Sequence record: OR995200.1
Length of the DNA: 64,000 bases
Origin: Escherichia phage JY01
Strand: one strand, 5' to 3'
In this document: in pieces, positions 39,240 through 48,780 of the stretch
Layout: every line of letters begins with the position of its first letter
How positions within the stretch are numbered: position 1 is the first letter of the stretch
Notes under the pieces: generated by a model
The model's input: the letters and a program-made list of their open reading frames with translations, nothing else
Told to the model about the DNA's origin: nothing
Database searches by the model: none
Position numbers and translations under genes: made by a program

Positions 39240-39713
39240 TTATTTGAACGATTTAACGTACTGAATAGAACCCTTACTATTCACAAAGGCAATTTTACCA
39301 TTTTTATTATACATGGTAGCAGTACGCTGATAACCATAGGTTTGTTTACCAGATTGATAACCAACTAATGCAAAATTATCTTCACCCATTTTATTCTGTT
39401 TAGCGCGAATGCGTTCATGACCATGTGCCATAAGAACCTTAGCATCACCAGTTGCAATGGATCGACGAGTTTTTTCATCTTCAACTGCATTAACAAAGTC
39501 GTCAAATGAATCAAATTTAGCATGAGATTTATTATACAATTTTCCATCTACTGCATAATTATATCCCTGTACATCCATCTCAACTTCTGTACCATCATCC
39601 AATACAGCAGTAATTTTTTGACCTTTTTTAAATTTCAAAAGATCAGTAAAAGATTCAGCAATAATTTGAGAATTAATAGCTGCTTCAGTGATAAATTCTT
39701 GATATGTTTTCAT
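39240..39713 (-). CDS. Internal-protein-like protein with capsid targeting sequence
   Basis: N-terminus MKTYQEFITE followed by A (LxE-type prohead protease site). Confidence 0.55.
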   Translation of the reverse strand: MKTYQEFITEAAINSQIIAESFTDLLKFKKGQKITAVLDDGTEVEMDVQGYNYAVDGKLYNKSHAKFDSFDDFVNAVEDEKTRRSIATGDAKVLMAHGHERIRAKQNKMGEDNFALVGYQSGKQTYGYQRTATMYNKNGKIAFVNSKGSIQYVKSFK

Positions 39714-39722
39714 GTGTTTCCT

Positions 39723-40139
39723 TTAAATGTAAATATTTTTACCGTAGTATTTATACCAGTGTGGCTTCATTAAAATTTTTTCATCGAGTCGTTGTTGACT
39801 CAATTTAATAGCTGATTTGCATGGATTATAATCATTTTTCCATTCTGCTGGAATATCGCTGATGTCAGGAACTTCAGTATCTTTTATATTGAACCCACGT
39901 TTTAAGCATTCCGTTATAATGTCTGATTGACGCTTTCGCAAAAATTCTAACTTATCGTAAAAGAACGTAACATGACCAGAGCCTAAAATAAACTCGGAAG
40001 ATATTTTAAAATCTTTAACCCGCTTACCATTTGCCACATGTTTACGAACTATACCAAAAACGCGTGGCAATTCACGGTATTCTGCGATTAAATGTTGATC
40101 AGCAAGTTCAGATACTAAAGTCAAATTAATACGAGTCAT
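39723..40139 (-). CDS. denV: Endonuclease V (pyrimidine dimer glycosylase)
   Basis: 138 aa, [17 protein letters not shown] matches T4 DenV as recalled. Confidence 0.9.
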
Positions 40140-40198
40140 TTTATCCCTCCAAGTAACTGTGAATATACTATCACAATTCTAGAAGAAAGTAAACAACT

Positions 40199-40693
40199 TT
40201 ATAGATTTTTATACGCGTCCCACGTACCAGTTCTAAACGTGGCAATGACTCGTTTTGCACGGTTAGGTGTTTGATTATACCATCTACTTTTAGCTAAGTT
40301 AACTGCTGCTTCATCCCAGCGTTTTTGCTGGAGCATGCGTAAAGAATTAGTAAATCCTGCCACGCCGGTTTCTCCCATTTGGAAAACCATATTAATCAAT
40401 GCACAGTGACGAACAGCATCAAGAGAATCATAAACTGGTTTTAATTTAGCATTTCTCAAAATTCCACGAACAGCAGCATCAACATCCTGATTAAAGAGTT
40501 TTTCAGCCTCATCTTTTGTAATTACACCATTGCAATTACGCCCAATAGCTTTATCTAATTCAGATTTAGCAACATTAAGTGATGGACTTTTAGTAAGCAA
40601 ATGACCAATGCCAATAGTGTAATAGCCTTCTGTGTCTTTATAGATTTTAAGTCTAAGACCTTCATCTATACGTAACATTTCAAATATATTCAT
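40199..40693 (-). CDS. e: Lysozyme (endolysin)
   Basis: 164 aa, [33 protein letters not shown]; a few residues differ from T4 lysozyme as recalled. Confidence 0.95.
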
Positions 40694-40730
40694 AATACCT
40701 CCTAAGTGTTTATAGAAGGTATTTATAAAA

Positions 40731-41186
40731 TTAAAAGAGGTTGTTCATTATTCGGTAAAGTGAAGGACCCATCACATATTGCCACTGAGTACGAGGAATA
40801 AGGGCAAAAGCATCCATCTCTGGAATCATAACACCATCTTTATTTTCAAAATAAGACTCGCAATGGCAATTTCTGAACATCTCATGCTCTACTGGAATCG
40901 TATAATAAAATAACTGTAAGTCTTTATTACTAGAATATTTAAATACACCTAGGTCTTCTAGAAGGTCTGGATTATAATTGTTAAAACCAGTCTCTTCTGA
41001 GCATTCTCTTCGTGCTGCATCTAATGCGCTTAAATCAGAATTTTCTACACGCCCCTTTGGAATATCCCAGCGATGTGCCATCATTCCAGGCTTACGAGAA
41101 CCAGTAACTCGTCCCATAAATAAATCTTTATCTTCTGTCATAAAGATAATACCAGCTGATAATGTTTTCATTTTAATTTCCTGCAT
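40731..41186 (-). CDS. nudE: Nudix hydrolase
   Basis: Nudix box [23 protein letters not shown]. Confidence 0.8.
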
Positions 41187-41656
41187 TCAGTGATAAAATT
41201 ATTTAAATTTTGAGTATATTTCTTTTCATCAAAAATCTTTTGCTGCCTACGTAACCGCCATGGCATTTCAATGAACACGCACCATATTCCTGATAGTACT
41301 GCTGCTGTAAAAATATTAACAAGTATAATTAAAAGAATCCAATCTTCCGTTCTGCCTACTGGACTTTCTCCAAAGAAGCAAAATACAAATGATGTCACAG
41401 GAAAACTAATAATATACCACAGAATAACCTTCTTATCTGTGAACCAATCAGCGTTCGTTAACTTAGCGCGACCATTATGAATACACACGAATTTATCATC
41501 TGTTATAATAGATGGCTTAGCTGCTTGATATCCCATTCTAAACTCCCTAATCAACAAATTTTTCATATCTTCAGAACAACCATTCCAGTCAACTCTATCA
41601 ACTGAAATGCCATCATCCCCATCATCTAAATCATACCAGCGAGTTTTTAAAATCAT
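41168..41656 (-). CDS. Membrane protein, C-terminal FITECRK motif
   Basis: Two hydrophobic helices; C-terminal FITECRKLK. Confidence 0.45.
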   Translation of the reverse strand: MILKTRWYDLDDGDDGISVDRVDWNGCSEDMKNLLIREFRMGYQAAKPSIITDDKFVCIHNGRAKLTNADWFTDKKVILWYIISFPVTSFVFCFFGESPVGRTEDWILLIILVNIFTAAVLSGIWCVFIEMPWRLRRQQKIFDEKKYTQNLNNFITECRKLK

Positions 41657-46987: not shown

Positions 46988-47073
46988 ATTATTAACAAAG
47001 GCTCTCAAGCAAGAACCCTTGATGATAGAGGGTATTAATCAGTGCGGTATGAGTTAATAATAACAAATAATTC

Positions 47074-47598
47074 TTAAAGCAAATTAAACATTTTAACGGT
47101 CGGCAAAACAATTTCTTCTTCTATATAAGAGTATTTAACACTCTCAACTACACGCAAGAAATCATAGTCATAATATTCAGAAGCATGACCAAGAATATCA
47201 ATAAGGCCTTCAAATATCTTATTACCATTCACAAAGAATAAGTCAAATACACGTTCTTCATCTTCTTCGGATTTATTACCAAGGTCAACTTCTATATCAA
47301 AGACCTTTTTAATGAATTCTGGATAAAGTTGTTCTGAGAACAGTCCTTCAACCAAGTATTCATAAATAAAAAGCGATTGCTCGCTGAACAAGCCATTACC
47401 ACAATAACGTTCAGCTTTAGTACTAGAATGTCTGCTTTTAAACTTCTTTAAAAGATATTGGAACTGTAAGATTTCATGCTCTTCTACGCCAAACAGTGTT
47501 TTAGTTTTATAGTTGTCACCATCATTTTCCCAGGTAGTGACATCAATTACGTAACCCTGCGGAATTGTAGTACCTAAACAAATATTCATTTTCACCAC
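47074..47598 (-). CDS. Hypothetical protein
   Basis: 174 aa ORF. Confidence 0.45.
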   Translation of the reverse strand: MVKMNICLGTTIPQGYVIDVTTWENDGDNYKTKTLFGVEEHEILQFQYLLKKFKSRHSSTKAERYCGNGLFSEQSLFIYEYLVEGLFSEQLYPEFIKKVFDIEVDLGNKSEEDEERVFDLFFVNGNKIFEGLIDILGHASEYYDYDFLRVVESVKYSYIEEEIVLPTVKMFNLL

Positions 47599-47882
47599 GC
47601 TGCATTAATATAAGTATATTTAATACATTCAAGACTTAAAGGATTCTTGAAAATATCATATTCAAGAGGACCTTTTTCTGTTTCAATAAAGAAATCAAAA
47701 TTTACTGTATTAAATTTACGGTCTTCCTTCACTAATTTAACCTGAGAAGATGAACGGTCAATGTAAACCTTTTCAACTTCAAAACATGTTAAAATGCCAT
47801 AATCATCAATCAAGGCTTTAGCTGCTTCTTGATCATATTTATATCCATTTTCAATGGACGATACTTTAGCATAAAGAATCAT
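47592..47882 (-). CDS. Hypothetical protein
   Basis: 96 aa ORF. Confidence 0.45.
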   Translation of the reverse strand: MILYAKVSSIENGYKYDQEAAKALIDDYGILTCFEVEKVYIDRSSSQVKLVKEDRKFNTVNFDFFIETEKGPLEYDIFKNPLSLECIKYTYINAAW

Positions 47883-47884
47883 TA

Positions 47885-48304
47885 TTACCCTTCATCAACA
47901 ATAGTATGAGTGTGGGCATTTACAATTTGCCACCAATCAAAGCGATTAGAACCATACATTGGTTTGTTCTCATTTTCTTTGATAATGTCACGGAGTTCAT
48001 CTTCGGTAGCGGCTTTCGCGATTAAATCAGCATATCCACCGCGAGGATAATAATTATCACCTGCAAAAAGTAAAAAGTTTGGTTTAATGTTATTGAACTC
48101 TTCAAGAGTAATAACTGTTCCACCAGGTTGAACAATATCTACATAACTATATCCTAATTTTTGAGCAGCATCTACTGCTTCAAGCAAGGTATCATGAGCC
48201 CATCCAATTTGGCAATCTGGCTTTTCAGATGGATTAGCCTGATAATCTGCATATACTTTATACATTTTACTCACCTTTAGAAATTTTATCCATAACGATA
48301 GCAA
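47885..48304 (-). CDS. Hypothetical protein
   Basis: 139 aa ORF; start may be an internal ATG. Confidence 0.45.
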   Translation of the reverse strand: MLSLWIKFLKVSKMYKVYADYQANPSEKPDCQIGWAHDTLLEAVDAAQKLGYSYVDIVQPGGTVITLEEFNNIKPNFLLFAGDNYYPRGGYADLIAKAATEDELRDIIKENENKPMYGSNRFDWWQIVNAHTHTIVDEG

Positions 48305-48452
48305 TTAAACCAATTAAAAATGCTACTACAAGTGAAAATACATTTTCTGCTGTAGTTAATAATCCGCATATAAATCCAACAAACATTGAAAAACTAAAAG
48401 CGGAAGCAGAAATTGCAATAGCAACATTTCGAATTAATTCACAGCGTTTCAT
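48267..48452 (-). CDS. Small two-helix membrane protein
   Basis: Start ATG 48450-48452 with GGAG; two hydrophobic segments. Confidence 0.45.
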   Translation of the reverse strand: MKRCELIRNVAIAISASAFSFSMFVGFICGLLTTAENVFSLVVAFLIGLIAIVMDKISKGE

Positions 48453-48530
48453 TTTATTCTCCTCAGTAGTTGATAGGGTAATAGTATCACTACTAAAACC
48501 CCGTGTAAACAACTTTGTGAAATTATTTTA
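48453..48530 (-). promoter_or_regulatory. Early promoter cassette copy 7 (variant with inverted repeat around -10)
   Basis: -35 TTTACA (48504-48509), -10 TACTAT (48481-48486); imperfect inverted repeat 48465-48493. Confidence 0.55.
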
Positions 48531-48780
48531 AATCTTCTAATCGTTTCTTCATCTTAGAACCATTTTTAGCGATTTCTCCTGCGTCAGAGCATAATGCTAA
48601 AAGTGCTTTAACTTTAGTTTGGTCTCCTTTAAAAGACGAAGGATCGACTGCAGCAGCAAGTTCTTTAATACGAGAGAAAAGACGCTCAGCTTCAGCTAAA
48701 GCCATTCCAAGCTTTACTTCCATACCATGAGAAGATTCAGTGATAATAGTTTCTGTAGCAAACTCTTTATAAGTTTTCAT
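48523..48780 (-). CDS. Internal-protein-like protein with capsid targeting sequence
   Basis: N-terminus MKTYKEFATETIITE followed by S; adjacent to 57B (ipI position in T4 as recalled). Confidence 0.5.
   Translation of the reverse strand: MKTYKEFATETIITESSHGMEVKLGMALAEAERLFSRIKELAAAVDPSSFKGDQTKVKALLALCSDAGEIAKNGSKMKKRLEDLK

Follow-up and report, generated by a model that had tools for sequence, protein, structure and literature searches.

Three minus-strand open reading frames (ORFs) in a 64,000-nucleotide stretch of the genome of Escherichia phage JY01 (sequence record OR995200.1; the whole stretch is called the window here) quite probably encode internal head proteins of the T4 type, that is, proteins packaged through an N-terminal capsid targeting sequence (CTS), cleaved by the prohead protease gp21, injected into the host and likely directed against its defences, with genes that are swapped as cassettes by recombination. 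We infer packaging, cleavage, injection and an anti-defence role for these three proteins from features that were observed directly, namely the N-terminal motif, conserved cleavage sites, promoters, cassette boundaries, polymorphism and family distribution. Judged by sequence, two of the three (39240-39713 and 48523-48780) are orthologs of the already named Ip4 and Ip5, which the original prediction, made from the letters of the window alone, had overlooked. The overall concept is already known; what is new is the ORF between these two, here called the middle ORF, as an internal-protein candidate, and the place in which it lies as what looks like a third cassette-based polymorphic locus. The three genes are as follows:

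39240-39713, minus strand: Ip4 gene, 157 aa, CTS-bearing internal head protein, isoelectric point (pI) 8.9, about 9.2 after cleavage
44736-45209, minus strand: middle ORF, an unnamed CTS-bearing ORF of 157 aa, RB32ORF132c family, phrog_2280, candidate internal protein, pI 9.5
48523-48780, minus strand: Ip5 gene, 85 aa, CTS-bearing internal head protein, in the T4 ipI slot (57B to tRNA.4)

All three ORFs were found exactly where the original prediction had put them and start, as it had quoted, with MKTYQEFITE, MKSYTQFLNE and MKTYKEFATETIITE. Translated in all six frames, the 64 kb contain exactly three matches to the motif MK[ST]Y..F..E, each at the start of one of these ORFs, against about 0.005 matches expected per shuffled window. 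A looser pattern, built from diverged family members, adds no further match in the window and picks out IPI, IPII and IPIII, and nothing more, in a 15-kb T4 reference locus, and because of these two results the tag motif is both sensitive and specific for internal proteins. According to a review of L. W. Black's work, internal-protein propeptides span 10-19 residues, with targeting determined chiefly by residues 4 and 7 and processing by residues 8 and 10, and gp21 cleaves after the Glu of L/I-X-E (PMC9026906). The likeness to a CTS with an L/I-x-E site that had been noted from the letters alone agrees with these published rules: an aromatic Tyr4 and a Phe7 stand at the very N-terminus of all three proteins, and each has an L/I-X-E site (ITE10 and IAE20 in Ip4, LNE10 and LNE15 in the middle ORF, ITE15 in Ip5). 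Past the first ~10 residues, no similarity connects the three window proteins with one another or with T4 IPI-III, so the description of the cargos as divergent stands. Like the T4 proteins, all three are basic (pI 8.7-9.5), and the genes as a group show the further properties of small, basic products, dispensability and polymorphism among related phages.

The window belongs to a T4-like phage of the genus Tequatrovirus. The segment that holds the three genes (bases 38500-50400 of the window) is 99.0% identical over its full length to Escherichia phage vB_EcoM-Sa45lw (Tequatrovirus sf23) and ~98% identical to wV7 and RB51. On the minus strand, the order of its genes is 1, 57A, 57B, Ip5, tRNA.4-.2, eleven tRNAs, an extra ORF and rnaD/rnaC, followed after rnaC by the middle ORF, e.8...e.2, nudE, e, denV, Ip4 and vs.8. 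A perfect TATAAATA late box, for which the expectation is ~0.005 per 60-nt upstream stretch, precedes both Ip4 and the middle ORF, and Ip5 is without one nearby. The original prediction had credited a single gene with a late promoter about 40 nt upstream; that distance is correct for the middle ORF, and the count falls one short, Ip4 having a box as well, at 34 nt.

Ip4 matches Pfam family DUF7412 (PF24183; E 9e-96) and phrog_3155, 'internal virion protein' (E 1e-101); it is labelled Ip4 in RB51 and Sa45lw, and the T2 entry reads 'IpIV internal head protein'. Its N-terminal features, with a slash marking the bond that would be cut here and below, are:

39654-39713, minus strand: Ip4 propeptide, codons 1-20, CTS MKTYQEFITE, candidate gp21 sites ITE10/A and IAE20/S
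39748-39755, minus strand: TATAAATA late-promoter box of Ip4, 34 nt before the ATG, within the 3' end of denV
39723-40139, minus strand: denV, directly adjoining e

Both Glu10 and Glu20 are invariant across 14 members of the family, the P3 residue is always I, L, M or V, and residues 1-18 are disordered in the AlphaFold2 model; depending on the site used, cleavage is predicted to give the neo-N-terminal peptide SFTDLLK or AAINSQIIAESFTDLLK. Over its first 32 nt and the 28 nt before them, the gene shares 91-93% identity with the 5' ends of T4 ipII and ipIII, and by position Ip4 lies in the classical ipII/III locus (e-denV-vs.8). The suspicion that the order relative to e and denV departs from that of T4 proved justified, as T4 has e-ipIII-ipII-denV-vs.8 and the window e-denV-Ip4-vs.8. 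The denV DNA itself is only 78% identical to T4 denV over 39850-40143, with 130 nt at the 3' end that cannot be aligned, whereas the neighbouring genes are 92-93% identical. The whole denV and Ip4 block looks like a replacement of the T4 ipIII-ipII-denV block.

Ip5 matches phrog_3499, 'internal head protein' (E 4e-50), is named Ip5 in RB51, T6 (Q38630), T2 and RB70 (Q38378), and is 95-99% identical to the T2, T6 and RB70 entries. Three features frame its cargo:

48736-48780, minus strand: Ip5 propeptide, codons 1-15, MKTYKEFATETIITE/S
48801-48869, minus strand: 69-nt repeat upstream of Ip5 with a sigma-70-type early promoter, TTTACA-17-TACTAT (48812-48840)
48470-48538, minus strand: second copy of the 69-nt promoter repeat, 86% identical, directly downstream of Ip5 (promoter 48481-48509)

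Position 10 is either E or K in the Ip5 family, and ATE10 is non-canonical as a gp21 site. The ITE15/S site is invariant in the family and aligns with the ITE19/A site of T4 IPI, of which the mature form, IPI*, has 76 residues (PMC3012670); the predicted neo-N-terminal peptide of Ip5 is SSHGMEVK. Compared with T4 ipI, only the body of the gene differs (48529-48756), homology spanning the first eight codons and resuming right past the stop codon, and the two copies of the 69-nt repeat bracket this swappable cargo. Only an early-type promoter was seen near Ip5, the nearest upstream late box being at 49907-49914, inside gene 1. A third and weaker copy of the repeat (62%) is present at 44528-44596 on the minus strand, upstream of e.8, with a TTTACA-17-TACTAT promoter at 44539-44567; it may be a mere reflection of the extended T4 early-promoter consensus.

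The middle ORF matches phrog_2280 over its full length (E 3e-60), a family that PHROGs lists as of unknown function; it has no match among Pfam or NCBIfam families and matches neither the Ip4 nor the Ip5 family. The identical protein of RB51 (ACP31056) is labelled 'RB32ORF132c hypothetical protein, flanked by 34 bp imperfect direct repeat' in an annotation that names Ip4 and Ip5 and leaves this one unnamed. By tblastn, homologs are present in 511 phage records; among the 40 matches listed, sampled evenly down the ranking, all annotated ones bear a hypothetical or generic phage-protein name only, and 48 of 49 named members in three 90%-identity clusters are hypothetical, the remaining one being a Klebsiella phage KPKp UniRef entry called 'Internal head protein'. 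The family is narrow, because a search of 1.8 billion representative proteins yielded only about eight genuine 50%-identity clusters. Three more distant candidates, the large repeat proteins P0017-P0019, were rejected as spurious, their scores being inflated by identical Ig-like repeats. The N-terminal feature of the middle ORF is:

45165-45209, minus strand: middle-ORF propeptide, codons 1-15, MKSYTQFLNE/AVLNE/A, with Tyr4, Phe7 and LNE at 8-10 and 13-15

Within this family Phe7 and Glu15 are invariant and Ala16 is nearly so, including in members at 34-42% identity and in the diverged member P0016. The tag is recognizable in Yersinia fHe-Yen9-01 (MLEYSEFLKELFCE/A), Klebsiella KP01 (MKFKEFLAE/A) and P0016 (MLKFNEFLAE/G), which are 34-53% identical to the middle ORF overall and several of which have a different C-terminal half; the tag and the x-x-E15/A16 site are kept in three genera. 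The codons for Tyr4, Leu8 and Glu10 differ synonymously between genera, which argues for selection on the tag peptide rather than for a relic of recent recombination, and the latter is also disfavoured because the middle ORF has no nucleotide homology to the 5' ends of the T4 ip genes. In the AlphaFold2 model, residues 1-15 are disordered and are followed by a confident three-helix domain (18-71), a linker that is disordered and rich in Lys, Pro and Ala, and a helical hairpin. Cleavage after Glu15 is predicted to expose ASSTEIQAVAK and cleavage after Glu10 AVLNEASSTEIQAVAK, an example of the intact, uncleaved N-terminal peptide being SYTQFLNEAVLNEASSTEIQAVAK. Truncated or frameshifted alleles of 93-111 aa (P0006, P0008, P0024) occur in several phages, e.g., SfPhi01 and T4_ev240, and are consistent with a dispensable accessory gene. 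Taken at the level of sequence, the middle ORF has every property expected of a T4-type internal protein.

In its location the middle ORF departs from the classical loci: its place is between rnaC and e.8, with terminator repeats on both sides. The anatomy of this slot is as follows:

44731-45254, minus strand: 524-bp cassette (late promoter, ribosome-binding site, ORF and most of the downstream terminator copy), absent from T4
45255-45290, minus strand: upstream copy of a 36-nt repeat, the rnaC intrinsic terminator, with a 10-bp stem at 45264-45287 and a T-run
44696-44731, minus strand: downstream copy of the 36-nt repeat, 92% identical, with a terminator hairpin at 44705-44728
45250-45257, minus strand: TATAAATA late-promoter box of the middle ORF, 40 nt before the ATG

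The upstream terminator copy is collinear with the 3' end of T4 rnaC at 98% identity, and at the site of the cassette T4 has a single copy of the repeat and no gene (by blastn breakpoints; the flanks are 94-98% identical to T4, where they overlap by 35 nt). Because a scan between the upstream terminator and the ATG of the middle ORF gave no sigma-70-type promoter, the middle ORF looks like an insulated, late-only gene. The same arrangement of terminator, late box, ribosome-binding site and ORF is found in the same slot of Mosigvirus SA35RD, where the box is AATAAATA, and the homolog in Jiaodavirus KEN39 is likewise preceded by a hairpin and then TATAAATA.

A survey with the slot and its flanks as the query matched 769 records and revealed at least four states of the slot. 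It is empty, with a span of ~620 bp, in T4, T2, RB9 and ACG-C40; it is filled with the middle-ORF cassette in 388 records covering at least 80% of the query, a count that includes the tandem state; it holds a different insert in ESh24, ESh28 and FL23; and it holds both in tandem in G50, ime09, BW-1 and PYps47T. The claim that internal-protein loci are hypervariable is therefore well founded here, the Ip4 and Ip5 loci and the slot all being polymorphic. The other insert is a 187-aa ORF that starts with MKTYAEFLTE/AAKL, has AATAAATA ~45 nt upstream and carries its own terminator; it is not in the window and was located as follows:

G50, L009:615-1178, minus strand: 187-aa second occupant of the slot
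ESh24, L008:615-1178: the same occupant
Bas37, L010:7029-7592: the same occupant, bas37_0243

This 187-aa ORF is present in 165 records, its names among the matches listed being hypothetical or 'Phage protein'. The 187-aa and 157-aa occupants belong to the same PHROG (phrog_2280), yet BLASTP aligns only their tags (E 0.013). A preprint on the HIDEN-SEQ screens (bioRxiv 10.1101/2025.11.20.689424) classes bas37_0243 as 'Essential' in the Bas37 transposon library (1/48 TA sites hit), an unexpected result for a gene that T4, T2 and the window all lack. The 157-aa and 187-aa families do not appear among the ip1-10 genes that have been screened, which for the middle ORF is based on the RB51 annotators' naming only, and no prior description of the rnaC-e.8 slot as an internal-protein locus was found in the accessible literature. 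We put forward tentatively, at somewhat less than an even chance, that T-even phages have in this slot a third hypervariable locus for internal proteins, made of late-only, terminator-bracketed cassettes whose cargos would be injected effectors against first-response defences that no Ip has been matched to.

How the three proteins might work can be envisioned from T4. The 10-20 residue CTS, through Tyr4 and Phe7, would bind the scaffolding core and bring each protein into the assembling prohead, where gp21 would cut after [L/I/M]-x-Glu, at Glu10 and/or Glu20 in Ip4, at Glu15 (perhaps Glu10) in the middle ORF and at Glu15 in Ip5. The small basic cargos so released would remain with the packaged DNA and be injected with it. 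Since their arrival would precede all expression of phage genes, they would most likely serve to counter strain-specific first-response defences, such as type IV restriction enzymes or systems like them, that act against DNA containing glucosylated hydroxymethylcytosine (glucosyl-hmC). The cargo genes would be exchanged as cassettes by recombination between short conserved flanks, which for Ip4 and Ip5 would be the CTS-coding 5' end together with the 69-nt early-promoter repeats and for the middle ORF the duplicated copies of the rnaC terminator. Repoila et al. are said to have proposed in 1994 that a conserved leader and roughly 70-bp promoter-containing flanks mediate such shuffling at two polymorphic internal-protein loci; the conserved 5' end of Ip4 and Ip5 and the 69-nt flanks of Ip5 match that model.

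Two genes of the window bear on the expected modification of the phage DNA:

365-1105, minus strand: thymidylate-synthase-fold protein at the gene 42 position (dCMP-hydroxymethylase type)
12005-13207, minus strand: DNA alpha-glucosyltransferase (Pfam AGT, E 9e-237)

Because the window encodes these two proteins, the phage DNA should contain glucosyl-hmC, the substrate of GmrSD-type enzymes. The annotation of the 99%-identical relative Sa45lw includes a dCMP hydroxymethylase and both glucosyltransferases. That phage is annotated with a beta-glucosyl-HMC-alpha-glucosyltransferase of the T2/T6 type, the counterpart of which is cut by the left end of the window.

Experiments on other CTS proteins are in line with such a role. 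T4 Ip1, Ip2 and Ip3 each inhibit a distinct type IV enzyme of the GmrSD family, and ip4-ip10 gave no reproducible hit on additional GmrSD variants (Silas et al. 2025, PMC12373910). The HIDEN-SEQ preprint (bioRxiv 10.1101/2025.11.20.689424) shows inhibition of McrBC by a further CTS protein, Bas37_0260, whose gene occupies the ipI locus of phage KarlGJung. The idea of injected anti-restriction effectors, which the original prediction had raised as a candidate role, draws its strength from this work on Ip1-3 and Bas37_0260, and for the three proteins themselves we infer it. Pfam, NCBIfam and PHROGs give none of the cargos a function, and beyond the tag none resembles known type IV restriction inhibitors in sequence or fold, nor has any a PDB fold or sequence match; the known inhibitors are themselves mutually unrelated, so that similarity among cargos is not a strong criterion.

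The same preprint describes orthologs of two of the window genes. The Ip5 ortholog, bas37_0261 (96% identical), is the neighbour of bas37_0260 and should not be confused with it: Bas37_0260 was considered as a possible Ip5 and rejected, being a different protein that is absent from the window. On K-12 bas37_0261 is non-essential; on CFT073 its log2 fold change is -2.09 (~4-fold depletion, adjusted p < 1e-5), and on CFE299 it is -0.01 (bioRxiv 10.1101/2025.11.20.689424). Insertions in 57B, upstream of the Ip5 ortholog, are depleted on CFT073 as well (-1.56), and the two depletions might be linked, e.g., by polar effects of the 57B insertions on Ip5, a link that its authors do not discuss. The ortholog of the middle ORF, bas37_0244 (98% identical), is likewise non-essential there, with 29/34 TA sites hit, and shows no effect on CFT073 (-0.11) or CFE299 (-0.30). 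In Yersinia phage fD1, three products, g129, g140 and g146, are listed as phage-particle-associated (PMC8309999); g140 is 99% identical to the middle ORF, g129 lies in the Ip4 slot with the same length and N-terminus, and g146 is an IPI ortholog. The list spans 113-137 of 277 gene products and includes DenV, lysozyme and NudE (PMC8309999), and because it is so broad it shows expression and co-purification only; the paper on fPS-2/-65/-90 contains no proteomics.

It is also conceivable that the three proteins are packaged and yet are mainly structural or DNA-associated components of the head instead of effectors aimed at the host, with functions such as have been proposed for T4 IPIII (charge neutralisation, core assembly or head-size fidelity), and we consider this unlikely. 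It would fit their small size and basic character, with a net charge of +3 to +8 after cleavage, and the Lys/Pro/Ala-rich linker that is modelled as disordered in the middle-ORF protein; T4 IPIII and IP0 mutants have head-assembly aberrations (PMC9026906), and the lack of an anti-defence target for ip4-10 (PMC12373910) points the same way. So does the mass of the set: the predicted mature products of Ip4 (~15.5 kDa), the middle ORF (~15.5 kDa) and Ip5 (~7.5 kDa) sum to ~38.5 kDa, close to the 38.2 kDa of T4 IPI*, IPII* and IPIII* (8.0, 9.8 and 20.4 kDa). This match is probably a coincidence, however, since the CTS set of Bas37 totals differently. A structural role is also hard to reconcile with genes that are dispensable and polymorphic, with a slot that is empty in T4 and T2, with bas37_0244 and bas37_0261 being non-essential, and with a defect of the Ip5 ortholog that is specific to one host rather than general, and every CTS cargo of determined function inhibits type IV restriction.

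A second alternative concerns the middle ORF alone and strikes us as quite unlikely: it would be an ordinary soluble late protein that is not packaged, its CTS-like start being a relic of ip descent or recombination and its detection in particles of Yersinia phage fD1 a contamination. An unpackaged protein would be compatible with the unspecific fD1 dataset, with the hypothetical label in nearly every record, with a position outside the two classical loci and with the lack of a phenotype for the ortholog on CFT073 and CFE299 in the Bas37 screens. It would leave unexplained why the tag and E15/A16 are kept, with synonymous changes, in three genera at 34-53% identity while the remainder diverges or is replaced; the gene, moreover, is without nucleotide homology to T4 ip 5' ends and sits in an insulated late-only transcription unit, and the second occupant of the slot also begins with a canonical tag, MKTYAEFLTE/A. 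That the N-terminal resemblance is mere chance has next to no likelihood: short as the motif is, with ~6 fixed positions, chance is refuted by three matches against 0.005 expected, all at ORF starts, and by the looser-pattern result, and two of the proteins belong to named internal-protein families, the motif being conserved within each family.

Several features around the slot deserve mention in their own right. Homologs of rnaD and rnaC, the T4 stable RNAs known as species 2 and 1, are encoded at 45255-45597 on the minus strand with 98% identity to T4 and a tRNA-like T-arm sequence; Rfam has no family that matches them. Between tRNA-Arg and rnaD lies a 116-aa ORF (45597-45947, minus strand), labelled 'similar to RB69ORF150c' in RB51, that is without a counterpart in T4, where rnaD directly follows tRNA-Arg. 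The tRNA cluster (45966-46987, minus strand) has eleven genes (Arg, His, Asn, Tyr, Met/CAT, Thr, Ser, Pro, Gly, Leu, Gln) against eight in T4, and there is no segB homing-endonuclease gene inside it; the tRNA with the CAT anticodon is probably the T4-type tRNA-Ile, as RB51 notes. Farther along, at the e.5 and e.6 positions (42370-42978 and 43020-43613, minus strand), the window has putative counterparts of bas37_0239 and bas37_0240, the orthology being assigned by position and length only. In Extended Data Table 7 of the HIDEN-SEQ preprint these two show log2 fold changes of -3.62 and -6.49 on the uropathogenic E. coli CFT073 (adjusted p < 1e-5) and no depletion on CFE299, and they may be unrecognised host-specific counter-defence genes.

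The interest of these genes lies in what capsid-targeted proteins do. All T-even CTS proteins of solved function (Ip1, Ip2, Ip3 and Bas37_0260) inhibit type IV restriction enzymes with high specificity, and such inhibitors help to set the range of wild E. coli strains open to a therapeutic T4-like phage. The published screens cover ten named ip genes, among which neither the middle ORF (511 records) nor its slot-mate (165 records) appears. Both nearly always bear the label hypothetical; as candidates they enlarge the list of injected counter-defence proteins, their slot between rnaC and e.8 points to a third genomic place in which to seek more of them, and recognition of the two corrects annotations in hundreds of phage genomes. 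A concrete lead to the target of Ip5 is the defect that its ortholog shows specifically on CFT073.

Set beside the T4 internal proteins, the three share the N-terminal CTS, MKT[YF].EF, with an L/I-x-E gp21 site, and the small basic character; Ip5 occupies the same slot as T4 ipI with flanks 97-98% identical, and Ip4 shares with ipII and ipIII the 5' end and leader described above. They differ in cargo bodies that have no detectable sequence similarity or fold match and in the gene order e-denV-Ip4 as opposed to e-ipIII-ipII-denV, and for T4 Ip1-3 the targets are known (GmrSD variants). The Ip4 and Ip5 proteins of T2, T6 and RB70 are orthologs of those in the window, with 95-99% identity, full-length family matches and no material difference. 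Bas37_0260 is likewise a CTS protein in the same type of locus and demonstrates that CTS cargos other than those of T4 can inhibit type IV systems other than GmrSD; it is absent from the window, and the 33% identity in its alignment covers essentially the tag only. With the phrog_2280/RB32ORF132c family the likeness is complete, the middle ORF being a full-length member, and it is the reading of this family as CTS-bearing internal proteins, and of its slot as an internal-protein locus, that is new here.

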